DNA of 64,000 bases from an uncultured Gammaproteobacteria bacterium (GTDB lineage Bacteria; Patescibacteriota; Patescibacteriia; Magasanikbacterales; JBBTXJ01). This document shows, one piece after another, positions 36,261 through 57,741 of the stretch (position 1 is its first letter; each line of letters starts with the position of its first letter). The translations under genes and the position numbers were made by a program. Under the pieces are notes generated by a model that searched no databases, was not told the origin of the DNA, and was given only the letters and a program-made list of their open reading frames with translations. The stretch is from contig CAZSVL010000001.1 in assembly GCA_964610305.1 (NCBI GenBank), positions 108,781-172,780 of the forward strand, written 5' to 3'.

Positions 36261-37367
36261 TCAAGAAACAAAGCGTCTTTGGACTCTGTTGCCAAAGCTG
36301 CAGATGACGTCATACGGATGCGTGCCTTTTTTACGCGCCCATTGTGCTACACGCAGCTCATTGTCTAGTAGCACTACTTCATCACCTACCTCAGCCTGTG
36401 GTACATCATCAAGCAGAACCGTTGTGTAATCCATGCTAATGCGTCCTATCATGGGGCATTTTATTCCGTGCACTGTAGCCTGCCCGTTGTTGGTTAGCGC
36501 AAAGGGTATTCCATCTGCATAACCGGCGGCTATGGTGCCTACGGTGCATGGTTTTTGCAGTGTGTACATTTTTCCGTAGCCAATACTGCTTCCCGCGGGC
36601 AGTTTTCTTACGGCAACAAGTTTTGATTTTAGTGTCATGGCCGGAAGCAGATTGTAGGCTCGGTTTCCTTCTATGTCAAAAATGCCGTATAGGTTTATTC
36701 CTGTACGGACTCCGGTAAATGGGTGACTATAGCTCTCCGGGATATTATTTATAGCGTCAGAGCTGCCTATGTGGATATTTTTAAAAGTTATTCCCCTACT
36801 CCTAAGCTTTGACAGAAGATTTGTAAAAGTTTCTATCTGAGAGATGGTAAATTCTCTATCTCCGTAAGCGTGGGGAAAATGAGAATATATGCCGGCTATA
36901 TTTAATTTTGGAAGCGAGCAGATTTCTTCAATTACCGATACAATATGGCCACCCGTCATTCCTAACCTTCCCATGCCAGTGTCTATAAGTAAGTGACAGG
37001 TAGCAGTTTTGCCTTGTTTGCGAGCCTCTAGACTCAAGCGGTATGCTGTGCGGCGATCCCCAATAGGCGCTACAATATCATGTTGTATTACTGCAGGGAT
37101 TTCCTCTTCTAAAAGTGTGCCTACAATATGGGGCTTTAGACCAGCTTTTTTTATCCACAAGGCTTCCCGAAGATCCGCAAGTCCCACCGATGTTGCTCCT
37201 GCATGAGCAAGTGTCTTGGCTATCATTTGGGGCTCACCAAGGCCGTAGGCATTAGCTTTAAGAACTGGCATTACCTCTAGTGGACTTACTTTTTCTTTGA
37301 TTGTCCTAAAATTGTGAGCTATGGCGCTCAGTTTTATTTCTAGCCATACGCGCGCATAATTTTGCAT
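36261..37367 (-). CDS. alr: alanine racemase
   Basis: PLP-lysine motif VLKANAYGLG, GRISMDY and the second catalytic-Tyr region. Confidence 0.9.
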   Translation of the reverse strand: MQNYARVWLEIKLSAIAHNFRTIKEKVSPLEVMPVLKANAYGLGEPQMIAKTLAHAGATSVGLADLREALWIKKAGLKPHIVGTLLEEEIPAVIQHDIVAPIGDRRTAYRLSLEARKQGKTATCHLLIDTGMGRLGMTGGHIVSVIEEICSLPKLNIAGIYSHFPHAYGDREFTISQIETFTNLLSKLRSRGITFKNIHIGSSDAINNIPESYSHPFTGVRTGINLYGIFDIEGNRAYNLLPAMTLKSKLVAVRKLPAGSSIGYGKMYTLQKPCTVGTIAAGYADGIPFALTNNGQATVHGIKCPMIGRISMDYTTVLLDDVPQAEVGDEVVLLDNELRVAQWARKKGTHPYDVICSFGNRVQRRFVS

Positions 37368-37392
37368 AGATTGGATGGTATCACTTTCTACA

Positions 37393-37792
37393 AATAAAAA
37401 AAATGCCCCCGCTGCGTTACAAGAAGGCAGCGAGGGCGGTGTAGGTGCGCGTTTACGCCTTTGTTGGGGATAAGGCTCCCCTTGGCCGTAGTGATTGGGT
37501 GGATCAGGCGCGCTGTGAGCGCATTATCCTCCGCTTTCGCGCTATGAGGAACCCTTTGGGGTGATCAGCCCAGACTAATACCGCAAGGCGGTGTTTTCTC
37601 ATTAGTCCTCAATACCTTTTGATCAGTCTCTCCTTGCCTCTCGGCTTTCCCTATTATATGGGTGCTGGCGTCCCAGCTGTGGTCTATCCCCTGCGTTCGT
37701 TTTTTTTGGCGTTAGGCCTGCAAGTGGAGCTCCCGGGGATAAAAGGAAGCATGCCGCCTGCCTCGCGAAAAGAGCAGCCATGGCTCATTCCG
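37393..37792 (-). ncRNA. candidate structured RNA, unit B (about 400 nt, GC-rich), own promoter and terminator, immediately upstream of alr
   Basis: minus-strand promoter 37800-37828, intrinsic terminator hairpin gcccccgctgc/gcagcgagggc with T-run (plus coordinates 37393-37437), no long ORF, about 57% GC; shares a conserved core with unit A, with compensatory changes. Confidence 0.5.
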
Positions 37793-37799
37793 TTAACAC

Positions 37800-37828
37800 A
37801 GTATAGCACAAAATACGCATTTTGTCAA
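37800..37828 (-). promoter_or_regulatory. minus-strand sigma70 promoter TTGACA-17-TATACT with TGTGC extension
   Basis: the plus-strand motifs tgtcaa (37823-37828) and agtata (37800-37805), 17 nt apart, give TTGACA-N17-TATACT on the minus strand. Confidence 0.6.
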
Positions 37829-37884
37829 GGGGTAGATTGACAAAATACGCTTATTTTAGCCAATTTTAGGGTCTTATTTTGAGT

Positions 37885-38164
37885 AAAAAAAGGACCCCGC
37901 GAGCATCTACCGTTAAGTAGTGCCACGGGGTCGAGGAAGCTATGAGCAGGTTGGGAGCGCCAGGCGCGTTATTCCTCCACAGCATTTTCAGCCGTATTAG
38001 AGGAGTCCCTTTAGGGGGATCAGCCCAGAGCACAGCCACAAAGTGGTGTTTTTCAGTGCTCTCCTTACTCACGATTACGGTCTCTCCTTGTTGCCCCTAA
38101 GAATTTATCGGGGTCGTGGATGGTGGTCCTGCCAGGGCAGACGTTGAATGGTATTAAAGAATCG
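37885..38164 (-). ncRNA. candidate structured RNA, unit A (about 280 nt), paralogue of unit B
   Basis: minus-strand promoter 38171-38199; terminator hairpin gaccccgtg...cgcggggtc plus T-run (plus coordinates 37885-37932); conserved blocks ...GAAAAACACC-hairpin-CUGGGCUGAUC.CCC.AAAGGG...GGAGGAUAAYGCGC-loop-GCGC shared with unit B. Confidence 0.5.
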
Positions 38165-38170
38165 GATTAA

Positions 38171-38199
38171 AGTATAGCAGAAAAAACGTATTTTGTCAA
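38171..38199 (-). promoter_or_regulatory. minus-strand sigma70 promoter TTGACA-17-TATACT with TGC extension
   Basis: plus-strand agtata 38171-38176 and tgtcaa 38194-38199, spacer 17. Confidence 0.6.
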
Positions 38200-38226
38200 G
38201 TGGTCTTTGACACGTGTTCTTTTTTT

Positions 38227-38299
38227 GTCATCCTGAACCGAAGGTGAAGGATCTCCTGCCGCGCGATGGTATGAGATCCTTCACTGCGTTCAGGATGAC
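38227..38299. repeat. MITE/REP-like hairpin element GTCATCCTGAAC...GTTCAGGATGAC
   Basis: 12-nt perfect terminal inverted repeats (38227-38238 and 38288-38299) enclosing a second inverted repeat gtgaaggatctc/gagatccttcac; same termini as the elements at 26251-26337 and 40212-40296. Confidence 0.65.
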
Positions 38300-38351
38300 G
38301 CTTATGGGTTTTGTCAATTAAAAAACCCAGATGGTTAGTCCGGGAGAATTT

Positions 38352-39113
38352 TTACAGGGGCTCAATCTTGCCGTTGAGCCTGATAATTCCCATATCAATA
38401 ACGGGAATATTTTGATTTTCTGCTTGCTCCACAAAGGCGCGTGCATCGCGCTGGTGGATCTGCAGCTCCTGCTGAGGATCTGCATGAAGCCCCGGCTCGT
38501 AAGCATCACAGTCTTCATGTTGAAACAGTCTTACACCCAAGCCGCGCTCCGCAGCCCAAGCAAAGAACTGCCGACCAGCCTCTGTTCCAACAAGCGCCTT
38601 TGCAGCGCCCGGGACAACAAAGCTGTATGAGTCTGGGTTACGGTACTCAGTTCTGATCATTTCAAAAGGCGTGCGGTAGTCGCAGCAGCATACCGTCACG
38701 GTATTCCAATCATCAGGTGGGCTGCTCTCTGGGTTTCCTTCTCTTACAAAAAGGTTATGAGACAAGCTGGTACGGCGATCATCCTTTCTAAGCAAATCAA
38801 TAATGACAGATGCTGCTTCAATACATGCCAGGCCATCATCGTCAATGAGCGTAACGTGCGTGGGATTATGCAAGGTAAGAAGTGTGGTAATAAAACCAAG
38901 CATTTCTTTGGTGAGCGCATCATTTTCCGCACCGTTGATCACCGCAATAGGTCGCGGGATCCGCAGCACATCGGCCTTTCCTTCTTCTAGATACCTTTCA
39001 ATCACCCGGTTTGCCTGCGGATGAGATGGAGCAATGATTAAACGAGCAATGGACGTTTCTGTCACGCTTCCCTCCTCTGGTGAGCGGCGCGGCGTAGTAT
39101 ACGCATTTGTCAT
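38352..39113 (-). CDS. hypothetical protein (weak LmbE/PIG-L-like resemblance)
   Basis: 253-aa ORF; SHPQAN and HNPTH segments faintly recall the HPDDE/HxDH motifs of LmbE-like deacetylases but are not conserved; CCCDYR and HEDCD cysteine-containing segments. Confidence 0.45.
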   Translation of the reverse strand: MTNAYTTPRRSPEEGSVTETSIARLIIAPSHPQANRVIERYLEEGKADVLRIPRPIAVINGAENDALTKEMLGFITTLLTLHNPTHVTLIDDDGLACIEAASVIIDLLRKDDRRTSLSHNLFVREGNPESSPPDDWNTVTVCCCDYRTPFEMIRTEYRNPDSYSFVVPGAAKALVGTEAGRQFFAWAAERGLGVRLFQHEDCDAYEPGLHADPQQELQIHQRDARAFVEQAENQNIPVIDMGIIRLNGKIEPL

Positions 39114-39174
39114 CCATTTGTCAAGCTATCTTTACTAATCTTTTTGAGATTGAAGCGGCGTTTCCTTTTTAGAC

Positions 39175-39203
39175 TTGACAAAAAGGCTTTTTTGTGCTAT
39201 AGT
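39175..39203 (+). promoter_or_regulatory. sigma70 promoter TTGACA-17-TATAGT with TGTGC extension
   Basis: ttgaca 39175-39180, spacer 17, tatagt 39198-39203; SD aaaggagg 39211-39218; ATG 39225. Confidence 0.65.
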
Positions 39204-39224
39204 TTTCTTAAAAGGAGGCACATA

Positions 39225-39677
39225 ATGCCACAAAAAAAAGGATCCGAGGCTTTTCGTAGGCACGTATCTCTGGTGGTGGTTGCTGTTGCGGCAACGATAG
39301 CAAGCATTGCAAGCGCTCTTTCTGCCAATACTGACGCTTTGAACAGCAGCGAGATTCTGCTGGCTCACTTTAGTGCTGGAGCCTTTGGAATCTTGGCGGC
39401 TATCGCGTTTGTGTTGCTTTGGGCAAAGGTGTATCAGCACAAGGGAAGAGATTTTAGCGCCAATATGATCATAGCTCTTTTGGGCTCGCCGCTGCTTGCC
39501 TTTCTGAGTTGGTTTTCTTTGCAGACGAGTCTCAATTCTGTGGGAGTAGCATCTTCCTGGGTTGGTTTGATCTGCGCTGCTTTCGGCTTTTTTACTGCCC
39601 TGATCGTCATGATTGGCTACAACTTTTCACCAAAGTTTCGCCTTGAAGTTGAGGGCATCCTCAAGCTAAAAGAGTAA
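39225..39677 (+). CDS. hypothetical membrane protein (150 aa)
   Basis: ORF-track 39144, but the promoter and SD position the start at ATG 39225 (MPQKKGSEAF...); four hydrophobic segments. Confidence 0.55.
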   Translation: MPQKKGSEAFRRHVSLVVVAVAATIASIASALSANTDALNSSEILLAHFSAGAFGILAAIAFVLLWAKVYQHKGRDFSANMIIALLGSPLLAFLSWFSLQTSLNSVGVASSWVGLICAAFGFFTALIVMIGYNFSPKFRLEVEGILKLKE

Positions 39678-39695
39678 AAGGAATAATATTCAAAT

Positions 39696-39754
39696 CTGTC
39701 GACTTGATCGGCAGTTTTTTTATCAAAAAAGCCCCTTGGAAGGGCTTTTATTTT
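39696..39754. terminator. two adjacent intrinsic terminators; the second is bidirectional and also serves atpC
   Basis: hairpin ctgtcg...cggcag (39696-39714) plus T7; then A6, hairpin gcccc-ttggaa-gggc (39731-39745) and TTTTATTTT. Confidence 0.6.
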
Positions 39755-40173
39755 CTATATTTTTTTGCGATTCTGATTCTGGACATGGCGCGTTCTAGTT
39801 GTGCTTGGAGTGCAGCGAATTCTACATCGTCCTCAAACTTCTTTTCTTTTATGTATTCTTCTGCTCGTTTGCGGGCTTCTTCTGCTCGCTCAAGATCAAT
39901 ATCTTCTGCTCGTTCTGCAGCATCTGCTAAAATCTGAACTTTACTCCCTTGCTGCACCTCTAAAAAGCCGCCGGTTACTATCATGGGAAATTCTGCGCCG
40001 TCCTTTTTTACGCGCATTTCTCCTGGTTGCAAGACAGATACCAATGGAATGTGGTTTTGAAGAATGGAAATTTCTCCTGATTGCGTCATCAGGGTGATCT
40101 CTTCTACTTCTGAGTCGTAAACAACGCGCTCAGGGGTTACCATTTTTAGTTGAATCATATGTTTTGTAGGCAT
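39748..40173 (-). CDS. atpC: F1Fo ATP synthase epsilon subunit
   Basis: beta-sandwich N-terminal domain (VTPERVVYDSEV...ISILQNHIPL) plus C-terminal helical hairpin. Confidence 0.9.
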   Translation of the reverse strand: MPTKHMIQLKMVTPERVVYDSEVEEITLMTQSGEISILQNHIPLVSVLQPGEMRVKKDGAEFPMIVTGGFLEVQQGSKVQILADAAERAEDIDLERAEEARKRAEEYIKEKKFEDDVEFAALQAQLERAMSRIRIAKKYRK

Positions 40174-40340
40174 TAGGCATCAGGCCTCAGGCATTAGTGA
40201 GGTGTCCACTTGTCATACTGAACTTGATTCAGAAACTATGAAGAAACAAAGTACGTCTTGCTGTTATAGTGGATCCTGAATCAAGTTCAGGATGACGCTA
40301 ACTGGGTACTAGTGCCTACTGCCTGATGCCTAATGCCTAT
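40169..40340. repeat. composite palindromic element filling the atpD-atpC intergenic region (outer inverted repeats plus 85-nt GTCATACTGAAC...GTTCAGGATGAC unit)
   Basis: outer arms ggcattaggcatcaggcctcaggcattag (40169-40197) and ctagtgcctactgcctgatgcctaatgcc (about 40309-40338); inner unit 40212-40296 shares the 21-nt ctgaatcaagttcaggatgac with 26317-26337. Confidence 0.7.
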
Positions 40341-40343
40341 AAC

Positions 40344-41805
<1,462 letters not shown>

Positions 41806-41813
41806 GGTGTTAT

Positions 41814-42716
41814 TTACGCCAATGCTGCGGCTCCGCCTGCGATCTCTGCAATTTCTTGCGTTATGGCGGCTTGACGCGCTTGGTTATAGGTTAAGGTTAA
41901 CTCATCTACGATATCATCGGCCGCATCGCTGGCGGATCTCATGGCCATCATGCGTGCGCTGTGCTCAGAGGCAATTGCCTCTAGTATGGCCTGAAAGACC
42001 GTAGTTTCAAAAAATCGTGGGAGCAATTGGGTGTATACCTGCTCTGGACTGGGTTCAAATAGGTACTCGCTGTCCTGATCTTGTCGGGGTCCTTCGTCGC
42101 TGCGCTCCTCAGGATGACGGGTTGGAAGCAGATTGGAAAATGGTAGAACTGTTTTGAGGATGGGCTTTTGAACGAGCGGTGACTGAAATTCTGTATAGAG
42201 CAGAGTTACTTTGTCTACTTTTTCGTTCTTAAATTCGTCCAGACATATTTGCCCCACGGGTTGGATCTGCAAATAGTCAATTACTTCTGTGATGTCCTCA
42301 AAGTTTGCGATGAGATCTAGCCCTTGTTTTGCCAGCGGACCTCTCCCTTTTTTTCCGACGGCTACAATTTTAACATCAACTCCGGCATCTTTGCGTTCTT
42401 TTGTATATCTAAGAGCTTCCCGAACAATGTTTGCATTCAAACCTCCACAAAGTCCTCTGTCCGAAGTCACTACTACTAATAGTTCTGTTTTATCTTGCAA
42501 AGGTTCACGCAGCAGCGGGTGCAGTGAACTCTCTGCCTTTTTAGCCAAACGAGCCAAAATACTCTGAGCGCTATCGCTGTAGCTTCTAGAATTCACAGCA
42601 GCCTCTGTGGCCTTTCGCATTTTACTGGCAGCAACAAGCTCCATCGCTTTGGTAATTTTTCGCGTGGATGCCACGGATTTGATCCGAGTACGTATAATTT
42701 TGGTTGAAGCTGGCAT
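41814..42716 (-). CDS. atpG: F1Fo ATP synthase gamma subunit
   Basis: 300 aa; gamma-subunit N- and C-terminal helices (MPASTKIIRTRIKSV...; ...QEIAEIAGGAAAL). Confidence 0.9.
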   Translation of the reverse strand: MPASTKIIRTRIKSVASTRKITKAMELVAASKMRKATEAAVNSRSYSDSAQSILARLAKKAESSLHPLLREPLQDKTELLVVVTSDRGLCGGLNANIVREALRYTKERKDAGVDVKIVAVGKKGRGPLAKQGLDLIANFEDITEVIDYLQIQPVGQICLDEFKNEKVDKVTLLYTEFQSPLVQKPILKTVLPFSNLLPTRHPEERSDEGPRQDQDSEYLFEPSPEQVYTQLLPRFFETTVFQAILEAIASEHSARMMAMRSASDAADDIVDELTLTYNQARQAAITQEIAEIAGGAAALA

Positions 42717-42759
42717 GTTTGTCTATTTACTATGTTTTGTTTTAACAGCCTATTCGGGC

Positions 42760-42788
42760 TTGACAGTAGAGTTGCTTTTTGCTATTGT
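42760..42788 (+). promoter_or_regulatory. sigma70 promoter TTGACA-17-TATTGT with TGC extension (opposite to the atp operon)
   Basis: ttgaca 42760-42765, spacer 17, tattgt 42783-42788; SD aaggagga 42801-42808; ATG 42813. Confidence 0.55.
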
Positions 42789-42812
42789 TTTTTTATAGCC
42801 AAGGAGGAGTGT

Positions 42813-43046
42813 ATGGATGCTGCACAGCAAGCTCACCATGCTCGTGTAATTGAGCCACGCAAGCGTGCTGGTACTAAGCGCAGACGCGAGATTTTCTATG
42901 CTACATTTAGGTTTCTGCTGGGCGTTATCTGCTTTGTTTTAGCTCTTACGCTTGTGACAAGAGAAAACACTCTACAAGAGGTCAGCACTTTTTCGGGAGT
43001 TTCGCTCCTGATTCTGTTTTATCTTACTGCAACTAAGAGAGCCTGA
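42813..43046 (+). CDS. small membrane protein (77 aa) with basic N-terminus
   Basis: strong SD plus ATG; MDAAQQAHHARVIEPRKRAGTKRRREIF then two hydrophobic segments; followed by a terminator. Confidence 0.5.
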   Translation: MDAAQQAHHARVIEPRKRAGTKRRREIFYATFRFLLGVICFVLALTLVTRENTLQEVSTFSGVSLLILFYLTATKRA

Positions 43047-43052
43047 TCTGTG

Positions 43053-43084
43053 ACCGCTTTTGATTAAAAGCGGTTTTTATTTTG
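43053..43084 (+). terminator. intrinsic terminator
   Basis: hairpin accgctttt-gatt-aaaagcggt (43053-43074) plus TTTTTATTTT. Confidence 0.65.
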
Positions 43085-43125
43085 GCAGACTAGCTAACGG
43101 GCTAATCAAGTTGATGATTCGCACA

Positions 43126-43154
43126 TTGACAAGTTGACCAAATACTGCTATGCT
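43126..43154 (+). promoter_or_regulatory. sigma70 promoter TTGACA-17-TATGCT with TGC extension
   Basis: ttgaca 43126-43131, spacer 17, tatgct 43149-43154; SD aaaggag 43169-43175; ATG 43182. Confidence 0.55.
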
Positions 43155-43181
43155 CGGTTTAGATCGTCAAAGGAGAAGATC

Positions 43182-43406
43182 ATGAAAGTAAGTAAGCTGC
43201 CTATTGTACTGCTGCTGTTTGGTTTCACGGCCTATCTTGTAGACATGCTCTACGCGCATATTCCCGCCAACGTTAGTGATTTTATTCTTTCTACCTTCCC
43301 GGTGACCGCCTTTGTGCTAACTATGCTGTGCATTGCTACGCTGCTGTCGGTGTTTGTTAAAGGAACAAAACCGTGGAGAGAGAATTCAGACCGTAACTCT
43401 GTTTAA
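43182..43406 (+). CDS. small membrane protein (74 aa)
   Basis: MKVSKLPIVLLLFGFTAYLV... two TM segments; own promoter and SD; T-run hairpin downstream. Confidence 0.5.
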   Translation: MKVSKLPIVLLLFGFTAYLVDMLYAHIPANVSDFILSTFPVTAFVLTMLCIATLLSVFVKGTKPWRENSDRNSV

Positions 43407-43425
43407 CGAGTGCGGTTTTTTTATT

Positions 43426-43496
43426 GTCATCGCGAGGAGTGAAGCAACGTGGCGATCCCGTCGGGATTGCTTCGCAGTTTCACTGCTCGCAATGAC
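43426..43496. repeat. 71-nt hairpin repeat, copy 2 (GTCATCGCGAGGAGTGAAGC...CACTGCTCGCAATGAC)
   Basis: see 41735-41805; lies between the small ORFs and the atpA stop. Confidence 0.7.
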
Positions 43497-43504
43497 GTCT
43501 TGTT

Positions 43505-44998
43505 TTATAGCTTCTTGAAATCTTCAACCGCCTGTTTGATACTACTTTCCACATCATCAGTGAGCTCACTTTTTTCTAAGATGGTATCCAGCAGTGTCTT
43601 GTGTGAGCTCTCTAAATACGCGTGGAACTTTTCTTCCCACTCCCCCACCTCTTTTACATCAACCTCATCCAAAAATCCGTTGGTCACTGCATACAAAATA
43701 CAGACCTGGTGCGCAACGTCCATGGTGTCGTACTGTTTTTGCTTGAGCACTTCTACGGTTCTTCTTCCGCGCTCAATTTGCTGTTTGGTGTCTGCGTCTA
43801 GATCTGATGCAAACTGGGCGAATGCTTCTAGTTCTCTGAATTGTGCGAGTTGCAAGCGTAATTTTCCAGCAACCTTTTTCATTATTTTGGTTTGTGCAGA
43901 TCCTCCCACACGAGAAACAGAAAGGCCCACGTTTAGTGCGGGTCTGATTCCACGGTAGAACAGATCTGTCTCCAGATAGATCTGACCGTCCGTAATAGAG
44001 ATAACGTTTGTTGGGATGTATGCGCTTACGTCTCCGGCTTGCGTTTCAATAATAGGAAGCGCGGTGATAGATCCTCCGCCGGCTTTTTCGTTGAGTTTTG
44101 CTGATCGCTCTAGAAGGCGTGAGTGGAGATAGAAAACATCACCTGGATATGCCTCTCGTCCCGGTGGGCGTTTCAAGAGCAATGAAATTTCTCTGTATGC
44201 CCATGCTTGTTTGCTCAGGTCATCATACACAATCAAAACGTCTTTTCCTTGATCCATGAAGTACTCTGCCATGGCAACACCAGAATATGGCGCTATAAAA
44301 CTCATAGCAGCCGGATCAGAAGCGCCGGCTACCACCACGGTGGTGTATTCCATGGCGCCCTCTTCTTCTAGCTTTGCCACAATGCGCGCTACTTTAGATT
44401 CCTTTTGACCAATAGCAACATAAACGCAGAGCATGTCCTGCCCTTTTTGGTTTATGATGGTATCAATGGCAACGGCGGTTTTACCGGTTTGTCGGTCTCC
44501 AATAATAAGCTCACGCTGCCCTCTTCCAATAGGGATCATGGCATCAATAGCTTTGATTCCGGTTTGCACGGGCTGGTTCACGCTTTTTCTTTTCATCACA
44601 CCTGGCGCAATTTTTTCTACGGGGTAAAATTTTGTTTCCTTAATTTTTGCTTTTCCATCAATGGCTTCTCCCAATGGATTAACCACACGTCCAATAAGAT
44701 CCTCTCCCACAGGTACGGACAAAATGCGACCGGTTCTCTTGGCGGTGTCCCCTTCTTTAATACCAGAGGTATCTCCAAAGAGCACCACACCAACGGTTTC
44801 TTCCTCCAGGTTAAGCGCAACGCCATACTCCCCTCCCGGGAATTCAATCATCTCTGACATTTGCGCTTTAGTAAGACCATTACACGTTGCAATACCGTCT
44901 CCAACGCTAACAACCGTGCCAATTTCTGCCACTTCTATCTCTTTTTTGTAACCTTCAATTTGTTTTTGGAGATGCTCCAGGATTGCTTGCGTTTGCAT
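43505..44998 (-). CDS. atpA: F1Fo ATP synthase alpha subunit
   Basis: GDRQTGKTA Walker A; 497 aa. Confidence 0.97.
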
Positions 44999-45000
44999 AT

Positions 45001-45396
45001 TTATAGGGTGCTAAGCTGCTTTTCTAGTTTGTTTAATTGTGTTTTTAAGCTGATATCGTAAATGGTGTCTTCTGTCTTTGCCACTACTCCGCCAATAAGC
45101 TTTTTGCTTATGGTGCTGGTAACAACAGGCTTTTTGATATCTAATTTTTCTAAAATGCTCCTTACTACTTCATCGTCAAGATCAAAAGCAGACTCTACGG
45201 TTACTCTTTGTTTTCCTTCCTTTTGGAGCTCTACGTCTAGCAGTGCCTGCTCAATTTTTTTTGCGCGATGAATGAGCGAGTTTTGCCCCAGATAATTTAC
45301 AAAGACCGCAATTCTTTCCTCAAGCTCATTTCCCTTTTGCGCGCCCTGGCAGAGTTGCCAAAGAACGCTTGCTAGTTGTTTATCGGAAACCTTCAT
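45001..45396 (-). CDS. atpH: F1Fo ATP synthase delta (OSCP) subunit
   Basis: 131-aa helical protein positioned between atpF and atpA; short delta-like. Confidence 0.8.
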
Positions 45397-45980
45397 TTTT
45401 CAAGGACATCTTTAACCGCCTTTTCACTCTTGCTGGCGTCCATTTCTTGTTCCAGAAGCTTTGCTGTTGCGGTTGCTACAAGCTGCGCTGCATGGCTTGC
45501 GATATCTTGCTGAGCTTCTGCTTTTTGCGTCTCTATCTGTTTTTTTGCGCCTGCTACAAGCGCTGCAATTTCTTGCTGCGTTTTCTCTCTTTGCAGTGCC
45601 GCTTGTTTTTCTGCTTGCTGCGATGATTCTGCCATAAGAGCTGCGGCTTGCTGCTTTGCTTCTGTCATTTTTTTATCATAATCCTGCTCTGCTGCTGCAA
45701 GGCGTGTTTGCATTTCCTGGGCATTGTCTATCCCCTCTTGGATTTTTGCCTGACGCTCATTCATTATTTTTAGAAGCGGCTTGTAAGCCATCTTCCATAG
45801 AATTAGCAGGATCAGAGAAAAATTAAAAAGCTGCGCTAAAAACAGCTTTTTGTTTATACCAAGAGAACCGAGTGGTCCCGCTGTGGGCTCGGCGGTGTGC
45901 GCTACTTCTGCTGCGCCTACGGCAGCGTCGGCAACTACGTGCGCAGCCTCCGTGGCTGCATGTGCGATTTCTATAAACAT
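45393..45980 (-). CDS. atpF: F1Fo ATP synthase b subunit
   Basis: single N-terminal TM then a long Ala/Gln/Glu-rich helix; the ORF-track N-terminal extension (to 46079) is translation of the 14-mer tandem repeat, and the true start is MFIEIA (cat 45978-45980). Confidence 0.8.
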   Translation of the reverse strand: MFIEIAHAATEAAHVVADAAVGAAEVAHTAEPTAGPLGSLGINKKLFLAQLFNFSLILLILWKMAYKPLLKIMNERQAKIQEGIDNAQEMQTRLAAAEQDYDKKMTEAKQQAAALMAESSQQAEKQAALQREKTQQEIAALVAGAKKQIETQKAEAQQDIASHAAQLVATATAKLLEQEMDASKSEKAVKDVLEK

Positions 45981-45986
45981 TTGGCA

Positions 45987-46118
45987 ATAAGTAACAAGTA
46001 GCAAGTCAATAAGTAACAAGTAGCAAGTAACAAGTAGCAAGTAACAAGTAGCAAGTAACAAACTTGTTAATACGCACACTGCGAAATTGCTACTTGTTCC
46101 TTGTTACTTGCTACTTTC
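45987..46118. repeat. tandem 14-nt repeats (GTAACAAGTAGCAA, about 5 copies) followed by their inverted copy, forming a long imperfect hairpin in the atpE-atpF spacer
   Basis: gtaacaagtagcaa repeated 45991-46060; inverted ttgctacttgttccttgttacttgctac at 46088-46115. Confidence 0.7.
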
Positions 46119-46206
46119 TAAGGACAGCCGCAAAATCCAGCTCGTTAACAAGTGTCAGCGGACCCCTTGCACAAACTGGATACTGCGGCCATCCGCAGCT
46201 TTATCT

Positions 46207-46425
46207 TTAGAGGGTGAAAACAACCACCAAAGCGTAAATGGCGATAGCCTCAGCAAATGCTGCGCCCAAAAGCATGGGTACAAACAATTTTCCGGCCGCC
46301 TCTGGGTTTCGCCCAATGGCTTCCATAGCTTTTGCTACAAGCCATCCAATGGCAAGAGCTGGCGCTAGACCTCCAATGGCCATAGTAAGACCCTTGGTAA
46401 GAACTTTAATTGATTCTGCGTCCAT
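46207..46425 (-). CDS. atpE: F1Fo ATP synthase c subunit
   Basis: 72-aa two-helix hairpin with GRNPE loop and the carboxylate-helix motif [13 protein letters not shown]. Confidence 0.95.
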
Positions 46426-46437
46426 ATATTCTTATTA

Positions 46438-46510
46438 AGTAACAAGTAGCAAGGAACAAGTAACAATTTTTCGCGCTTTTTTTGTTACTTGCTGCTTGTT
46501 ACTTGCTGCT
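46438..46510. repeat. second copy of the GTAACAAGTAGCAA-based hairpin (atpB-atpE spacer)
   Basis: gtaacaagtagcaaggaacaagtaac ... gttacttgctgcttgttacttgctgc inverted arms around a T-rich loop. Confidence 0.65.
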
Positions 46511-46514
46511 TAAC

Positions 46515-47306
46515 CTAATGTGGCTCGCTGGTGGCCACTTGCAAATAAACCAGCGTTAACATAGCAAATACTGTAGCTTGAATCAAGCCAACAATTATCT
46601 CTAGCAGCATAAACGGCGTTGGCACCAGCACTGCAATGAGGCCGGCCATCACGGTCAAAAGCACTTCTCCGGCAAAGATATTGCCAAAGAGACGCAATGA
46701 AAGTGACACCATTTTAGCAATTTCAGAGATAATTTCCAAGAGTCCAACAAAAAACTCAATTATGGCAGTCATAATTGCCATGGGACCTTTTTTTATACTC
46801 TTAAACACACTGCCCAGCTGAATAAATTTGCCAACATGTTTAAAGAACCCAATGGCAACTATCCCAAACACGTGCGATCCTATCACAGCTAGTATGGCCA
46901 TGGCAAGGGTCATGTTTAAATCTGAGTTTGCCGGCCTAAAAAGCGGGATGAGCTCTACACTTCCGTGATGCATTTGCCATTGGCCGATTGAGCCAATGCC
47001 CGGCAGGATTCCCATCCAGTTTGAAACGGCAATAAAAAGGAAAAGCGTTCCTACCAACGGCAAAAAACGCTCAGATTTTGCTCTATCATGCGTAACTTGA
47101 TCAAAAAAGCCTAGCATAAACTCTAAAATTGCTTCTGCAACGTTCTGAAGACCTTCTGGTACCATTTGTACACGCCTCTTTATCATAAAGGCAACAACAG
47201 CAAAGAAAACAAGAGCCACCCATGTGTTGATGATGGCATTGGTCACGGTGAATGATCCAATATTAAAGATTGGTTCTGCTGCTAGGGGTGGAAGTAATAA
47301 TAACAT
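46515..47306 (-). CDS. atpB: F1Fo ATP synthase a subunit
   Basis: 263-aa polytopic protein with the conserved Arg-containing helix (LSLRLFGNIFAGE). Confidence 0.9.
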   Translation of the reverse strand: MLLLLPPLAAEPIFNIGSFTVTNAIINTWVALVFFAVVAFMIKRRVQMVPEGLQNVAEAILEFMLGFFDQVTHDRAKSERFLPLVGTLFLFIAVSNWMGILPGIGSIGQWQMHHGSVELIPLFRPANSDLNMTLAMAILAVIGSHVFGIVAIGFFKHVGKFIQLGSVFKSIKKGPMAIMTAIIEFFVGLLEIISEIAKMVSLSLRLFGNIFAGEVLLTVMAGLIAVLVPTPFMLLEIIVGLIQATVFAMLTLVYLQVATSEPH

Positions 47307-47307
47307 G

Positions 47308-47568
47308 CTATAAATCTTGGTACTCTTTTCCGTATTTTACCGATTTTTTGTAGATAATTTTGGCCGAAATAAGCGCCGCCAGTACAAAACCAGCCACTGT
47401 TAGCTTATACCCGCTCTGAAAATATAAGTCAAGCCTTTTTCCAGCGTAGGCAAGTATTACAACGGGCGCCGCAATGGTAAAAAGATAGTCCCCGGTGATC
47501 CTCAGAGCAAAAAGCCAGTAGCGGCTATCAGATTTTTTCTCTTTATTAAGCTGTTTTTGCTCTTCCAT
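47308..47568 (-). CDS. ATP synthase protein I / AtpZ-like small membrane protein
   Basis: 86 aa, two TM segments, first gene of the atp operon. Confidence 0.65.
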   Translation of the reverse strand: MEEQKQLNKEKKSDSRYWLFALRITGDYLFTIAAPVVILAYAGKRLDLYFQSGYKLTVAGFVLAALISAKIIYKKSVKYGKEYQDL

Positions 47569-47627
47569 ATTAAAAAGACGCAGCTATTATAGCTGGCATC
47601 TCTTAATTTATCAAGGGGATAAAAAAC

Positions 47628-49910
47628 TCAGGAATTATTATTTCCGTTACCACCGTTTTTGCCTCTTCTCGTCTTTTTGGGTGGCTCTTTGGGGCCTTCT
47701 GCATCAAGTCTGTCGCGCAGTTCTCTTCCTATTTCTGCGTACTTCGCGTCAATTTTATCTCTTTGTTTTCTACTACCCCGAACATAGCCGCTTGCTTCTT
47801 TGAGCATTTCTACGGTTATCCATTTTTTGTTGTCTTGCCCTCTTAATCTTTGATACCTGGTGTTTCCACGATCTGCATCGGCTTGAAAACGCGCCTCTTG
47901 CTTTTGCAGCTCATCAATAACAGACTTTTTGACCGCTTCCTTATCATCATCACTGTCTACGCCCGGGTAATGATAAATATGGTAGAGCGTCTGCACTGAT
48001 GCTCCTCTTGGATCTCTGTCTGCATAGCTAAAGACATCAGATCTGTTGCGCTGAGGCCTTGCCTCTAGGAGTCTGAGCATCTCATTAAACTCCATCGTAA
48101 AGTCTAGCTTTTGGTTTTCTTTTGTGAGCTGTTTTTTATATATGGCAAGGTGTCCTCTAATTATATCTCCTTGTGGAAGATCAAAATCTATTTCTTGAGA
48201 GTTTCCGTGCTCGTCTTTGCCAATGGCTAAAAAGAATGAGTGTTTGCGGGGCTGCCATACTAGCACATTGTTAACGCCAAAAGCCTTTGCCGTTTGCTGT
48301 GGTGGCATATTCCTACCCTCAGCATCTATCATGATATACGTGGGGCCAAATTTGGTATCTACCACGTACCCGCGCGATTGCCAGTAACCAAACATTCTTA
48401 TGTTGTGGGCAATTTGCTTTTCTTTTGCTTCAACTACTTCCCTGAGCGTGCCGGTTTTGGTGCCGCGCCTATCGGTATATTCAAATGATCTGTCTAAATC
48501 TTCCTGGGAGATATGATCTTCTGGTTTGTATTTTTTAAGCAGCTGATAAACCAGCTCTCTGGGTACCTTAAAGTCATTAGCTATGCCCCAGAGCGTATCA
48601 GCAGACTCTCCATAAAAACCGTATGAGCTCTCTGGCGAGCCCTCCACAGGCATCTCTCCGTTATCATGTGCCGTAACAAATGCCATGAGTTTTTCTAGCG
48701 CTGGGTCTTTTTCAATGAGGCCGGCATCAGAAAAATATTCATATATGAGCTGAGCGCCAGAGGTTTCTCTTTCTGACTGGTCTGCGGTGTGATGGTCTAC
48801 CGTGATTCTAAACTCTCCCTCTCCCATGTCATCGTAATCAGGGAATTCAAAATGCATGCCGTTGTCGCCTGGTTTTGCCGTTAGCTCATGCTCTAGCCGC
48901 TTGGCAGAATCCATGGTGTCAAATTGCAGCACGATTGGATCAGCTGTTCCCTCTGTGCCGGGAGCTACCATTTCTACATTCTTTTCCTTGCCTTTTACTT
49001 TGACATTAAAGCCGGCTTTACCCAAAAGCCATATGCCAAATTTTACATCTAAGTTTGCCTGATCATAAGCATGTGGCTTCCACGCCTCTTGGCTTTGATC
49101 CCACTGCATTCTTCCGCGCGTTGCCAGCTTGAGATATTTTTTTATGAGCTCTGGCCCACGCTCTGCTATGGCTTTATCTATTTCTTCTTGTGGTAGGTCC
49201 TTAAATTCTTCAAATTTATGCGGTTGCTTTTGTATCGCGGCAAGTACCGCCATTAGGAGCACCATAACTTTTGCCTCTCTCTTGCGTTCATGTGGCTTTA
49301 GCGGCACTTCTTTGGCTGTCTCCGTAACTTCAATTTCCGTCGTGGCTGGCGGCTCTGCTTCAGTCATGAAGGTGTCCATTACGTCTAGGGCATCGGTTAC
49401 TTTTTCTTCATGCTCAGTTGGCTCTGGATCGTCTTTTTCTTTTTTAGCCATTGCCAAAAGAGCAGCTCTTTCTTTTTCTACTCTGATTTCTTCTTCTTTC
49501 TGTCTCTTTTGCGCCAATGCCCTCAGGAGTTCAGATTTTCTCTCTAGTTTTGATTGTGTTTTTTCAAGCGCATTGCGTTGCATTGACAACGCGCTACTCA
49601 CCACCGCATAAGCGCTCTGGTTTTTTCCAATAAGCAGTGGGTTGATAAGATCAGCAAATTCTCCAAGACGTTCTCTGTAATTCTCCGACGTAACAGAATC
49701 ATGCATTATGGCTTCCCAATCTTCTAGGCTGCCGCCTTCTTCTATCCATTCGCTGAGTTCCTCTGCCTGATCAGCTGAGGGAACCTCTGTTTGCGCCTGC
49801 AGCAAAATCAAAGATTGCGCCTTAGTAAGTTCACTAATGGCGCTCTTAATTTTTTCTACATCCGCGGAGCTTACCTCCAGCAGGCTATCCACCCTGCTTT
49901 TCATGGGCAT
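47628..49910 (-). CDS. large hypothetical protein (760 aa) with N-terminal coiled-coil, internal DHH-like motif and basic Gly/Asn-rich C-terminus
   Basis: long ORF in AT-normal context; ITVDHHTAD segment; C-terminus KKTRRGKNGGNGNNNS; no confident family. Confidence 0.55.
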   Translation of the reverse strand: MPMKSRVDSLLEVSSADVEKIKSAISELTKAQSLILLQAQTEVPSADQAEELSEWIEEGGSLEDWEAIMHDSVTSENYRERLGEFADLINPLLIGKNQSAYAVVSSALSMQRNALEKTQSKLERKSELLRALAQKRQKEEEIRVEKERAALLAMAKKEKDDPEPTEHEEKVTDALDVMDTFMTEAEPPATTEIEVTETAKEVPLKPHERKREAKVMVLLMAVLAAIQKQPHKFEEFKDLPQEEIDKAIAERGPELIKKYLKLATRGRMQWDQSQEAWKPHAYDQANLDVKFGIWLLGKAGFNVKVKGKEKNVEMVAPGTEGTADPIVLQFDTMDSAKRLEHELTAKPGDNGMHFEFPDYDDMGEGEFRITVDHHTADQSERETSGAQLIYEYFSDAGLIEKDPALEKLMAFVTAHDNGEMPVEGSPESSYGFYGESADTLWGIANDFKVPRELVYQLLKKYKPEDHISQEDLDRSFEYTDRRGTKTGTLREVVEAKEKQIAHNIRMFGYWQSRGYVVDTKFGPTYIMIDAEGRNMPPQQTAKAFGVNNVLVWQPRKHSFFLAIGKDEHGNSQEIDFDLPQGDIIRGHLAIYKKQLTKENQKLDFTMEFNEMLRLLEARPQRNRSDVFSYADRDPRGASVQTLYHIYHYPGVDSDDDKEAVKKSVIDELQKQEARFQADADRGNTRYQRLRGQDNKKWITVEMLKEASGYVRGSRKQRDKIDAKYAEIGRELRDRLDAEGPKEPPKKTRRGKNGGNGNNNS

Positions 49911-54952: not shown

Positions 54953-54975
54953 TTTTGCAGTTGCGGTGCCTTTTT

Positions 54976-55020
54976 CTTGAGATCCCGGATATTTTGCTAC
55001 GCAAAATTCCGGGATGACAG
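54976..55020. repeat. partial GAGATCCCGGAT...TTCCGGGATGACAG hairpin element
   Basis: shares both arms with the elements at 56486-56615. Confidence 0.6.
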
Positions 55021-55050
55021 GGGGTAGTTTTAGAATGACATGGGTATGAT

Positions 55051-55338: not shown

Positions 55339-55443
55339 AGTGCCATTTTAGCATTGTAGTATAAAAAGAGCCACAGCAGCTTTTTTCATTTTTTTTGGTT
55401 TCTGAAATGTGGCTAATTTAAGCCAATTTTGTCAAGTTACCTC

Positions 55444-55472
55444 TTGACAAAATTGACAAAGTGTGCTATACT
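55444..55472 (+). promoter_or_regulatory. sigma70 promoter TTGACA-17-TATACT with TGTGC extension; 38-nt sequence duplicated at 57377-57414
   Basis: ttgaca 55444-55449, spacer 17, tatact 55467-55472; ctcttgacaaaattgacaaagtgtgctatactgctttt is identical at both sites. Confidence 0.65.
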
Positions 55473-55479
55473 GCTTTTG

Positions 55480-56164: not shown

Positions 56165-56746
56165 TTATAGTCCTAAAAAAAGATCGTCTCCCAATTCTAA
56201 ATCTTCAAATTCCCCTTTTGTGTAATCCCCTTCTGGGAGTTTGCGCGCCGCTTCTACTTTTGAAGCTGCCTCCGGGGGGATGACCTCTGAGATTATGTTT
56301 CCGTTAACGGCTATATTGTTTGCTACTTCACAATAGCCCAGGCAGCCTCTGTATTGCAGAGAGACTTCCTCACTTTCTTGCCCTTCTTTGATTCCAAAGT
56401 GATTTTCTAGCTCTTGCATAATATAGCGCGCATGCTTGGGGCCGCAGGTTTTGGAATCGCAGACTTCAATTCGATCTACCTTTTTGTCATCCCGGACTAG
56501 ATCCGGGATCTCAAGTGATGCGTCTACCGACGATTTTTTACTTGAGATCCCGGATAATTCACTATGTGAATTTCCGGGATGACAGGTGGAGGGTTGTGAA
56601 TTTCCGGGATGACAGATTGGTTTGTTTTGTCCGCATGTGCAGTTTTCGCATTTTGACGGGATCCCTCGGCTCTCCTGCGGATCGCTCGGGGTGACGGGTG
56701 GGTTACCCATAGTATTTTTCGCTATAAAATCTAATGAGTTGCTCAA
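56165..56746 (-). CDS. thioredoxin-like [2Fe-2S] ferredoxin (NuoE-like); N-terminal region of uncertain reality
   Basis: C-terminal CDSKTCG ... GCLGYCE (C-x4-C ... C-x3-C); the N-terminal about 90 codons translate the CCGGGATGACAG repeat elements and overlap the upstream NifU gene by 44 nt, so the true start is probably internal. Confidence 0.65.
   Translation of the reverse strand: MSNSLDFIAKNTMGNPPVTPSDPQESRGIPSKCENCTCGQNKPICHPGNSQPSTCHPGNSHSELSGISSKKSSVDASLEIPDLVRDDKKVDRIEVCDSKTCGPKHARYIMQELENHFGIKEGQESEEVSLQYRGCLGYCEVANNIAVNGNIISEVIPPEAASKVEAARKLPEGDYTKGEFEDLELGDDLFLGL
56486..56615. repeat. GTCATCCCGGAC...TTCCGGGATGACAG hairpin element with tandemly duplicated right end, embedded in the 5' part of the 2Fe-2S ferredoxin ORF
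   Basis: termini gtcatcccgga (56486-56496) and tccgggatgac (56573-56583); inner inverted repeat ccgggatctcaagt/acttgagatcccgg; second copy of gtgaatttccgggatgacag at 56596-56615. Confidence 0.65.
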
Positions 56747-57362: not shown

Positions 57363-57379
57363 TTTTGTGTGTTTAGCTC

Positions 57380-57408
57380 TTGACAAAATTGACAAAGTGT
57401 GCTATACT
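57380..57408 (+). promoter_or_regulatory. second copy of the TTGACA-17-TATACT (TGTGC) promoter
   Basis: ttgaca 57380-57385, tatact 57403-57408; fires into the iscU-iscS intergenic region; T7 at 57521-57527 after a structured 100-nt segment. Confidence 0.6.
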
Positions 57409-57741
57409 GCTTTTAGATGGTAATGCTGGTGCTGGATGAGGGATGCGATGTGTTGCAAAGGCCTTGTGACATGTTGTAGACCGCTTGAGTTCAGGCCGAC
57501 ACCAGTCGGAAATTAAGGCGTTTTTTTCTCGAAGCCAGCGGAATATGCGCAGTTATGTATTGCCAAAGGATACGGCTCCTGAGGGCGGGCGGCGCGTACT
57601 GCTTCAAAAACATTACCATCTAACCTCTCTTCTTCACCCTGCAGCTTGCGTCTTTGACGTGGCGGCTGTAGCCTCTGCCTAAGGGCACGACTGTAACAGT
57701 CGTTGGTGAAAACAGACACACCGGTCTGAAGAGGGGATTTT

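Follow-up and report, generated by a model that had tools for sequence, protein, structure and literature searches.

In Staphylococcus aureus, menE-menC-MW1733-ytkD-MW1731 reportedly form a non-contiguous operon, a case said to go back to Saenz-Lahoya et al. in 2019. Non-contiguous operons have been defined and validated in that species (PMC11034616, PMC7154746). Eight cases involve a peptide of fewer than 50 aa, and in seven of them it is the peptide that is encoded on the opposite strand; according to the authors who introduced the concept, operons of this kind are not computationally predictable (PMC11034616). Excludons have been described in Listeria monocytogenes (Sesto et al. 2013, reviewed in PMC7154746). 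Symmetric fragments of about 20 nt from both the sense and the antisense RNA are a signature of RNase III (PMC7154746).

The locus described here is the F-type ATP synthase operon of an ultra-small bacterium of the Patescibacteria (CPR), contained in a 64-kb stretch of DNA that we call the window. The operon includes all eight subunit genes plus atpI on one strand, as judged from Pfam and from tblastn synteny with more than 140 relatives. All nine are minus-strand genes with a Pfam match and follow the canonical order atpI-B-E-F-H-A / G-D-C. The sequence-only reading of this DNA had proposed that the operon is split between atpA and atpG by two plus-strand genes, each a self-contained unit encoding a small protein with two hydrophobic segments. 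Both the coordinates and the anatomy bear this out, and the arrangement is one of co-directional genes parted by opposite-strand genes, atpIBEFHA(-) / ORF2(+), ORF1(+) / atpGDC(-). The features of the operon are as follows.

47586-47614, minus strand: main atp operon promoter, immediately upstream of atpI, TTGATA-17-TATAAT (11/12 matches)
47308-47568, minus strand: atpI-like gene (PF09527), by Pfam
46515-47306, minus strand: atpB, by Pfam
46207-46425, minus strand: atpE, by Pfam
45393-46079, minus strand: atpF, by Pfam
45001-45396, minus strand: atpH, by Pfam
43505-44998, minus strand: atpA (F1 alpha), by Pfam; final gene before the interruption
42717-43504: atpA-atpG spacer, 788 nt, holding two complete plus-strand units
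41814-42716, minus strand: atpG (F1 gamma), by Pfam; first gene past the interruption
40344-41726, minus strand: atpD, by Pfam; tail of the operon
39748-40173, minus strand: atpC, by Pfam; tail of the operon
39727-39749: two-way terminator hairpin marking the operon end, common to atpC (minus) and a convergent gene (plus)

The gene convergent with atpC encodes a 150-aa membrane protein. Between 39000 and 48200, the only strong minus-strand promoter match is the one upstream of atpI. In 145 related operons, the atpA-atpG gap has a median of 44 nt and is larger than 788 nt in one. Since the spacers of the next-closest relatives (L001 and L082) are also short, at roughly 70 nt and under 113 nt, the spacer insertion is a derived state. 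Across the Patescibacteria operons, atp gene junctions of at least 300 nt number 24 out of 623.

There is one sequenced close relative, L162, and it has the same atpA-spacer-atpG layout within a syntenic neighbourhood. An assembly artefact is ruled out by this identical layout and by an independent Logan assembly (L081), in which atpG, ORF1 and ORF2 are also contiguous. Two copies of a palindromic (MITE/REP-like) element are present.

43426-43496: palindromic element, 71 nt, just past the atpA stop codon
41735-41805: second copy, 90% identical, in the atpG-atpD gap

The first copy belongs to an insertion of 84 nt (43425-43508) that L162 lacks; a TTTTAT duplication flanks this insertion and re-forms the atpA stop codon. 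It folds at -39 to -46 kcal/mol on either strand and has no U-tract on the minus strand. The Logan contig ends inside both copies. Mis-assembly through the two copies was nevertheless rejected, since that contig joins atpG-ORF1-ORF2 and L162 gives the order without the element.

Each of the plus-strand units carries its own expression signals.

42760-42788, plus strand: ORF1 promoter, TTGACA-17-TGcTATTGT, with TG extension
42801-42807, plus strand: ORF1 ribosome-binding site, AAGGAGG
42813-43046, plus strand: ORF1, 77 aa, basic N-terminus, two hydrophobic segments, net charge +7
43052-43085, plus strand: ORF1 terminator, 10-bp hairpin followed by TTTTTATTTT, one-way (-18.5 kcal/mol, z -3.7)
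43126-43154, plus strand: ORF2 promoter, TTGACA-17-TGcTATGCT, with TG extension
43170-43175, plus strand: ORF2 ribosome-binding site, AAGGAG, in a leader of about 20 nt
43182-43406, plus strand: ORF2, 74 aa, two predicted transmembrane helices, with a homologue in L162
43388-43424, plus strand: ORF2 terminator, hairpin followed by T7, one-way (-12.2 kcal/mol, z -2.7), kept in L162

The ribosome-binding sites lie 5-6 nt ahead of each ATG; they are strong and fully exposed in leaders that are only about 20 nt long in both genes. The ORF1 terminator begins 6 nt past the stop codon. Both terminators are taken as one-way because the minus-strand side of each hairpin has no T-run. The promoter pattern TTGACA-N14-TGNTANNNT occurs nine times in the window against 0.04 expected, and none of 100 shuffles equalled that count, so we regard it as a real promoter type of this genome and not a product of chance. 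The same design of promoter, AAGGAGG and terminator is found at single-gene plus-strand units at 9461, 39225 and 62936. A foreign origin suggested by the ribosome-binding sites was rejected, since native single-gene units, including the one at 62936, use the same promoter and AAGGAGG. By eye, the translation of the gene at 62936 looks like that of a housekeeping gene. Many genes of the genome are leaderless or lack a ribosome-binding site, and the genome shows two distinct modes of translation initiation. The atpG gene has neither a ribosome-binding site nor a recognisable promoter upstream.

ORF2 is a real protein gene under purifying selection. Its coding score of 0.112 per codon falls at the 33rd percentile of real gene segments and exceeds all 955 of 955 wrong-frame controls. 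Among 1.84 billion representative proteins it has one homologue, P0003 (47% identity, E 3.9e-10), which is encoded in L162 on the plus strand between atpA(-) and atpG(-). Between the two, pN is 0.35 against a pS of 0.62 (Z 3.6); identity is highest at the second codon position and lowest at the third (2 > 1 > 3). The sequence-only reading had allowed that neither frame might be conserved even in close relatives; ORF2 is conserved, with position, strand, length and sequence all kept in the one known relative. A word-indexed search of 5.8 billion clusters with ORF2 returned only itself, and a profile built from ORF2 and P0003 found no further homologue. The pair is a new two-member family of small membrane proteins, known from this position only. 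The AF2 model of ORF2 has two long helices and is weak (pLDDT 65, pTM 0.35).

The signals around ORF2 are conserved as well. The two genomes share 95% (atpA) and 90% (atpG) amino acid identity with a dS of about 0.9-1.8, and neutral sites are near saturation, yet the -35 box, the extended -10 (TGnTAT), a TTAGATC leader motif and the ribosome-binding site of ORF2 all align. The position of the ORF1 promoter aligns with that of the promoter of the first unit in L162, where two unrelated genes of 229 aa and 68 aa stand in place of ORF1. Apart from ORF2 and the plus-strand signals, the spacers of the two genomes have no conserved sequence in common, and there is no conserved minus-strand block. 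The 90% identity cluster of atpA has two members, making this a lineage of two genomes in 15 billion proteins, and genome and metagenome scans for closer relatives through atpG topped out at 62% and 60% identity. Since the lineage consists of two genomes only, the conservation of position may reflect plain inheritance and not functional linkage.

Consensus scans of the spacer found no promoter-like or terminator-like site on the minus strand, either in the window or in L162. The spacer has no minus-strand ORF of at least 30 aa, and no Rfam match to a non-coding RNA appears there even at E up to 5. The sequence-only reading held that atpGDC must use an internal promoter or read-through against convergent transcription. 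This was sound reasoning, and with no internal promoter found in either genome, read-through is favoured. Since the plus-strand terminators are also one-way, it is the most likely route to atpG-atpD-atpC.

Our preferred reading, which we hold with about even confidence, is that the islet consists of vertically inherited, fast-evolving plus-strand genes for small membrane proteins, and that atpGDC is transcribed by read-through as part of a non-contiguous operon. It is made up of two self-contained units, P1-SD-ORF1-T1 and P2-SD-ORF2-T2, each carrying the genome's own strong promoter type. The cargo of the first turns over, being ORF1 here and two unrelated genes in L162. Transcription from the one promoter ahead of atpI would cross 788 untranslated nt to reach atpG-atpD-atpC, and the atp mRNA would then cover both small mRNAs in antisense over their full length, as in a non-contiguous operon. 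Polymerases colliding head-on, together with cleavage of the sense/antisense duplexes, would couple the small proteins inversely to gamma, beta and epsilon. Judged from sequence, the locus is a candidate non-contiguous operon with predicted read-through and reciprocal regulation. Several points weigh against the read-through model. There may be a non-consensus internal promoter for atpG, and an untranslated stretch of 788-1448 nt is one that Rho-dependent termination would naturally act on. Since ATP synthase requires alpha and beta at 3:3, strong promoters firing head-on between atpA and atpD should come at a cost, unless polymerases read through efficiently or the scans missed a promoter.

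The alternative that survives best, possible although we put it clearly behind the reading just given, is that there are two transcription units: atpIBEFHA would end after atpA, atpGDC would start from a non-consensus promoter in the spacer, and there would be no coupling. A long untranslated spacer with two near-consensus head-on promoters would hinder read-through, and start signals in this genome can be unconventional, given how many genes are leaderless or lack a ribosome-binding site. A weak CATAGT hexamer can be read 12 nt upstream of the atpG ATG. Split atp clusters are also known in other phyla, of which the cyanobacteria are an example. Against two units stand the scans, which found no promoter-like site on the minus strand of the spacer in either genome, and the restriction of spacer conservation between both genomes to ORF2 and the plus-strand signals. 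Furthermore, atpA is followed by no minus-strand terminator; the palindrome behind it has no U-tract on that strand and does not occur in L162. In every other relative the atpA-atpG junction is tight, as is typical of co-transcription.

ORF1 is an orphan, and its case differs from that of ORF2. Conservation, which the sequence-only reading had proposed as a check for both peptides, fails here: ORF1 has no counterpart in L162 and is unrelated to either of the two genes that replace it (A and B), and its coding statistics are atypical. We consider it probable that ORF1 is protein-coding. A somewhat unlikely alternative is that it is not a functional protein gene, the transcript of the first unit being non-coding or decaying and ORF1 being the remnant of replaced cargo. 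The coding score of -0.069 per codon, which lies below 99.5% of real 75-codon gene segments, would fit this, as would its status as a singleton that matched only itself in a word-indexed search of 5.8 billion protein clusters, and the fact that the orthologous promoter in L162 drives the genes of 229 aa and 68 aa. On the other side, the ORF1 frame outscores the other five frames as well as 97% of wrong-frame controls, and a near-perfect promoter, an ideally spaced AAGGAGG, an ATG, a 77-codon frame and a terminator make up a coherent coding unit. The islet genes of L162, including the ORF2 homologue, themselves score 0.00-0.01, so low scores seem typical of the islet. ORF1 and ORF2 are not related to each other, each is single-copy with no paralogue in the window, and a comparison of the small proteins of the islet found no match besides ORF2 with P0003.

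By default, we take the two peptides to be accessory membrane proteins unrelated to catalysis. It is quite unlikely that the ORF2 family instead serves the F-type ATP synthase as a dedicated accessory factor or regulator, such as an assembly factor or inhibitor. Both known members do lie between atpA and atpG, and the membrane hairpin is similar in size to small ATP-synthase-associated proteins. The opposite-strand genes of non-contiguous operons have been proposed to be functionally antagonistic to the enclosing operon (PMC11034616). However, the family occurs in two closely related genomes only, and their neighbourhoods are syntenic, so the position carries little information. There is no similarity to AtpI/AtpZ, the c subunit or any Pfam or PDB entry, and the remaining islet cargo lacks conservation. 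ORF2 also evolves at roughly ten times the rate of the atp genes (dN/dS 0.34 versus 0.02-0.12). The bolder version, in which the ORF2-family hairpin is a lineage-specific F1Fo regulator made in opposition to gamma, beta and epsilon through head-on antisense transcription, we consider very unlikely. If true, it would amount to a built-in switch by which an ultra-small symbiotic bacterium could throttle or re-purpose its ATP synthase.

The sequence-only reading likened the peptides to type I toxins or membrane modulators. A modulator role may or may not apply, and the toxin analogy finds no support. We consider it very unlikely that ORF1, ORF2 or both are type I toxin-like membrane peptides neutralised by antisense atp read-through or by a small RNA. 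In favour of it, both products are small and hydrophobic, an antisense transcript probably overlaps their mRNAs, and toxin-antitoxin systems are among the gene types found in the non-contiguous operons of S. aureus (PMC11034616). ORF1 also has a faint Hok/Gef match (E 0.068). That match (PF01848), however, reaches 13.2 bits against a cut-off of 22 and covers a hydrophobic helix only; ORF2 has no match to the same family. At 74-77 aa with two hydrophobic segments, neither product is a single-helix peptide under 60 aa. The spacer (42717-43504) has no minus-strand promoter for an antitoxin RNA and no Rfam match, which leaves the atp read-through mRNA as the one possible antisense partner. The unoccluded ribosome-binding sites and short leaders are unlike those of translationally locked toxin mRNAs, and each gene is single-copy. 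Sequence searches of Pfam, PHROGs, PADLOC, NCBIfam and PDB gave only sub-threshold matches on hydrophobic helices, with no hits proper in PADLOC, PHROGs or NCBIfam. A non-contiguous operon, not a toxin system, is the likely identity of the locus. A phage holin or prophage remnant was rejected, the best PHROG match being at E 0.027 (unknown function) with no lysin or integrase nearby, and IMG/VR scans with the two peptides found no relative.

Tight co-directional junctions are the rule among the roughly 160 atp operons surveyed from Patescibacteria and others. This operon, in which antisense genes with promoters of their own sit between alpha and gamma and have been kept across saturated silent-site divergence, is therefore a rare natural test case. 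What it tests is how head-on transcription is tolerated, or put to use, by a fixed-ratio complex. Confirmation of read-through would carry the concept of the non-contiguous operon into the candidate phyla radiation and to an operon at the core of bioenergetics. The regulatory model is one that we infer, and in practical terms the locus is of moderate importance.

Among known systems, other Patescibacteria atp operons (L129, L057, L156, L087, L019, L022 and L032) carry sporadic cargo at their junctions, none of it homologous to ORF1 or ORF2. Unlike ORF1 and ORF2, most of these insertions share the strand of the operon and are thus compatible with simple co-transcription. L032 is an independent antisense case: its atpG-atpD gap holds an opposite-strand gene for a 78-aa product with two hydrophobic segments, and this gene comes with a promoter-like site, GGAGG and a terminator. 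AtpI/AtpZ proteins (PF09527) are likewise small, have two transmembrane helices and are encoded within the atp cluster, but their genes are co-directional and at the 5' end of the operon, and they show no similarity to ORF1 or ORF2. With the type I toxin-antitoxin systems Hok/Sok, TisB/IstR and Fst/RNAII, the locus has in common small hydrophobic membrane peptides and a likely antisense-overlapped mRNA. It differs in that the peptides are larger, have two hydrophobic segments and match no family, there is neither a small-RNA promoter nor a structured inactive leader, and ORF2 is a conserved single-copy gene.

As in excludons, the atp mRNA would at the same time serve as a long antisense RNA to its opposite-strand neighbours, and transcriptional interference or RNase III could make their expression mutually exclusive. 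In classical excludons it is the UTRs of divergent or convergent neighbours that overlap, whereas the antisense genes here are fully embedded in the operon. The non-contiguous operons of S. aureus resemble this locus in that the opposite-strand gene is often a small-peptide gene, energy-metabolism operons are among the cases, and the operon transcript has to cross a long untranslated stretch. Here, unlike in S. aureus, there are two tandem, independently terminated antisense units, with co-transcription and reciprocal repression that we infer; the organism belongs to the uncultivated Patescibacteria, with initiation that is mostly leaderless or free of ribosome-binding sites; and the host operon is that of the F-type ATP synthase, with its fixed subunit ratios.

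The source of the window is a Patescibacteria (CPR) bacterium. The best relatives of its atpG are found in Patescibacteria MAGs, at 62% identity among GTDB genomes and 60% among JGI metagenomes, and those in Uhrbacteria and Magasanikbacteria come next, at about 45%. Nine atp genes, all confirmed by Pfam, lie on the minus strand in the canonical order atpI-like, atpB, atpE, atpF, atpH, atpA, atpG, atpD and atpC. The sequence-only reading had the operon split between atpA and atpG by 788 nt, and that length is exact. The spacer contains two plus-strand units (the islet), each with the complete set of promoter, Shine–Dalgarno site and terminator claimed for it, and has no minus-strand ORF of at least 30 aa and no Rfam match.

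42716, minus strand: start of atpG
42760–42788, plus strand: unit 1 promoter, TTGACA-17-TGcTATTGT
42801, plus strand: unit 1 ribosome-binding site, AAGGAGG
42813–43046, plus strand: ORF1, 77 codons from ATG to stop
43052–43085, plus strand: unit 1 terminator, 10-bp hairpin and T-run
43126–43154, plus strand: unit 2 promoter, TTGACA-17-TGcTATGCT
43170, plus strand: unit 2 ribosome-binding site, AAGGAG
43182–43406, plus strand: ORF2, 74 codons from ATG to stop
43388–43424, plus strand: unit 2 terminator, hairpin and T7
43505, minus strand: end of the atpA stop codon
41735–41805 and within 43425–43508: the two copies of a palindromic element (about 71 nt), each in a gap between atp genes
9461, 39225 and 62936, plus strand: units that, like ORF1 and ORF2, combine a strong promoter, an AAGGAGG-type ribosome-binding site and a terminator

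Both products are small proteins with two hydrophobic stretches, and that of ORF1 has a strongly basic N-terminus and a net charge of +7, in agreement with the first description. The window has nine matches to the pattern TTGACA-N14-TGNTANNNT, where shuffled sequence predicts 0.04. This is clearly the strong promoter type of the genome, and ORF1 and ORF2 each have one of the nine copies in front of them. AAGGAGG-type strong sites at the right spacing are confined to a few single-gene plus-strand units with strong promoter and terminator. Since the same design recurs at 9461, 39225 and 62936, ORF1 and ORF2 are built exactly like the genome's other stand-alone genes. An SD-like core stands upstream of just one of the 45 long window genes. 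In 15 of 44 genes (6% expected), the start codon is preceded by a TAnnnT (-10) box that ends 5–8 nt away, which suggests leaderless mRNAs for about a third of genes. The genome has two modes of translation initiation, mostly without a ribosome-binding site, versus AAGGAGG behind a consensus promoter and a leader of about 20 nt in the few stand-alone plus-strand genes.

Coding potential was scored with a three-periodic Markov model trained on 45 window genes. ORF2 scores 0.112 per codon, which exceeds every one of 955 wrong-frame controls and falls at the 33rd percentile of 75-codon segments from real genes. A word-indexed search of 5.8 billion protein clusters returned only self-matches for both ORFs, and an exhaustive HMMER search of 1.84 billion representatives found a single homologue of ORF2, P0003 (73 aa, 47% identity, E 3.9e-10). 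Its contig (L162; ENA ERZ930066, 84.5 kb), from the only sequenced close relative, is syntenic with the window over the whole atp region and carries P0003 on the plus strand between minus-strand atpA and atpG. An assembly error is excluded, as this second genome has the same arrangement and an independent Logan assembly also has atpG, ORF1 and ORF2 on one contig. Amino-acid identity between the window and L162 is 95% for atpA and 90% for atpG, and silent sites are near saturation (dS ~0.9–1.8). Between ORF2 and P0003, the start, length and two-helix pattern are retained, conserved motifs include MKxxKxPxxLLLF, DML..H.P and VKGTKxWxE, codon positions rank 2 > 1 > 3 by identity, and pN is 0.35 against a pS of 0.62 (Z = 3.6). 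The -35 box, TGCTAT -10 box, TTAGATC leader motif, ribosome-binding site and terminator of unit 2 can also be aligned. The coding score, the homologue, pN/pS and the aligned expression signals together show that ORF2 is a genuine gene, under purifying selection and fast-evolving. Conservation and dN/dS had been put forward as checks, and ORF2 bears them out, with its homologue in the same place and strand and a dN/dS of ~0.34, against 0.02–0.12 for the atp genes. Its AF2 model, of low confidence (pLDDT 65), consists of a pair of long helices.

ORF1 is a singleton among the 5.8 billion clusters and has no counterpart in L162, so the conservation check went against it. Its score of -0.069 per codon is the best of six frames and above 97% of wrong-frame controls, and it is below 99.5% of real segments. 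The unit 1 promoter has a positional orthologue in L162; the genes behind it there encode a membrane-anchored protein of 229 aa and one of 68 aa that has two hydrophobic segments. Since the islet genes of L162, P0003 included, also score only ~0.00–0.01, the islet seems in general to have weak codon bias. We consider ORF1 probably coding.

The median atpA–atpG gap of 145 related operons is 44 nt, and just one of them has a gap longer than 788 nt. Among 15 billion proteins, the 90% identity cluster of atpA holds the window genome and L162 only. Because the spacers of the next-closest relatives are short (~70 nt in contig L001, <113 nt in L082), the islet dates from the time between the divergence of those lineages and that of the window and L162; it has been retained ever since, while the cargo of unit 1 turned over. 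Of 623 atp junctions, 24 reach 300 nt or more, and most of these hold cargo co-directional with the operon. In an unrelated Parcubacteria genome (L032 6892–7465), the atpG–atpD gap holds an opposite-strand gene for a 78-aa protein with two hydrophobic segments; the gene comes with GGAGG, a promoter-like site (TTTACA-17-TATATT) and a hairpin/T-run terminator. This is an independent occurrence; the phenomenon is rare, not unique. Similar small antisense ORFs with ribosome-binding sites may be present in loci L100 and L148.

The sequence-only reading rightly posed a dilemma for atpG-atpD-atpC, an internal promoter or read-through against convergent transcription. ATP synthase requires equal alpha and beta, which argues either for efficient read-through or for such a promoter. 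The sole strong minus-strand promoter in 39000–48200 lies upstream of atpI (47614 to 47586, 11/12 matches). Because the minus strand has no promoter-like or terminator-like site in the spacer of the window or in that of L162 (1448 nt), and both plus-strand terminators lack a T-run on that strand, the simplest reading is that RNA polymerase would continue past atpA, cross the islet and enter atpG. This would give an atp mRNA complementary to the whole of both small-gene mRNAs. The main rival, a separate atpGDC operon with an unrecognised internal promoter, would meet the same need for equal subunits, and we regard it as possible but rather unlikely; beyond ORF2 and the plus-strand signals, the two spacers have no other conserved sequence in common.

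The peptides have no significant match in Pfam, PHROGs, PADLOC, NCBIfam, PDB or IMG/VR. A specific role at the ATP synthase is possible but unsupported, and we think it improbable: the position is uninformative with two syntenic genomes only, and the atp genes evolve some ten times more slowly than this protein. The suggested likeness to type I toxins found no support and is very improbable, given the size of the peptides, how many hydrophobic segments they have, and the lack both of a toxin-family match and of a dedicated antisense promoter. Our default reading is that the peptides are accessory, rapidly evolving small membrane proteins. A 150-aa membrane-protein gene (39225–39677, plus strand), with the promoter and ribosome-binding site design of ORF1 and ORF2, is convergent with atpC, a two-way terminator serving both genes; at ~21–23% identity to its positional counterpart (L162 1241–1684), its product is another very fast-evolving one, like the islet peptides.

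The ~71-nt palindrome has termini GTCATYGCGAG...CTCGCRATGAC and folds at ~-40 kcal/mol. Compared with L162, the copy that follows atpA is an insertion of 84 nt; the TTTTAT duplication flanking it regenerates the atpA stop codon, as a MITE would do. The termini are also present as inverted pairs at other loci of Patescibacteria (L005, L014, L079, L124), that of L005 in the atpA–atpG gap. A second palindrome family (GATCCCGGATA…TTCCGGGATGAC) has two copies, 54971–55036 and 56536–56601, at 79% identity. Repeats of 7-nt period form long hairpins in atp intergenic regions (40164–40342, 45974–46120, 46422–46513; L162 3780–3850): (AAGTAAC/AAGTAGC)n on either side of atpE, extending into atpF at its 5' end as annotated, and, in the atpC–atpD gap, repeats of the GGCATTA/GGCATCA type that enclose an inner hairpin, GTCATACTGAAC...GATGAC. 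At the same junctions, L162 has other 7-mers, CATATGG/CCTATAG. At L162 4789–4892, the atpG 5' end (~25 nt including the ATG) is duplicated around an inserted ~70-nt element (…GATCCTTCGACTCGCTATGCTCGCTCAGGACGAC…), giving a pseudo-start, MPTSTKTTRS…, upstream of the real one. The ~1 kb at 37367–38352 has two minus-strand promoters, both perfect (38199 to 38171; 37828 to 37800), no convincing ORF, no tRNA and no Rfam match; its 72-nt block at 37800–37871 is 85% identical in L162, above flanking coding DNA, and the region may encode non-coding RNAs or tiny genes. A 65-nt plus-strand promoter block (TTGACAAAATTGACAAAGTGTGCTATACT) occurs twice at 89% identity (55414–55478 and 57350–57414), with no clear ORF downstream and no Rfam match for the putative transcripts.

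Non-contiguous operons, in which co-directional genes are split by opposite-strand genes and co-transcribed across them, need transcript data to be established (PMC11034616; PMC7154746), and for this reason the locus, known here from sequence, stays a candidate, at what we judge to be about an even chance. In the known systems, the gene inside the operon frequently encodes a small peptide, and transcriptional interference and RNase III cleavage lead to reciprocal expression of the two strands (PMC11034616; PMC7154746). What is new here is a two-member small-protein family, ORF2 and P0003, and a candidate example that has the architecture of those systems, opposite-strand small genes inside an operon.
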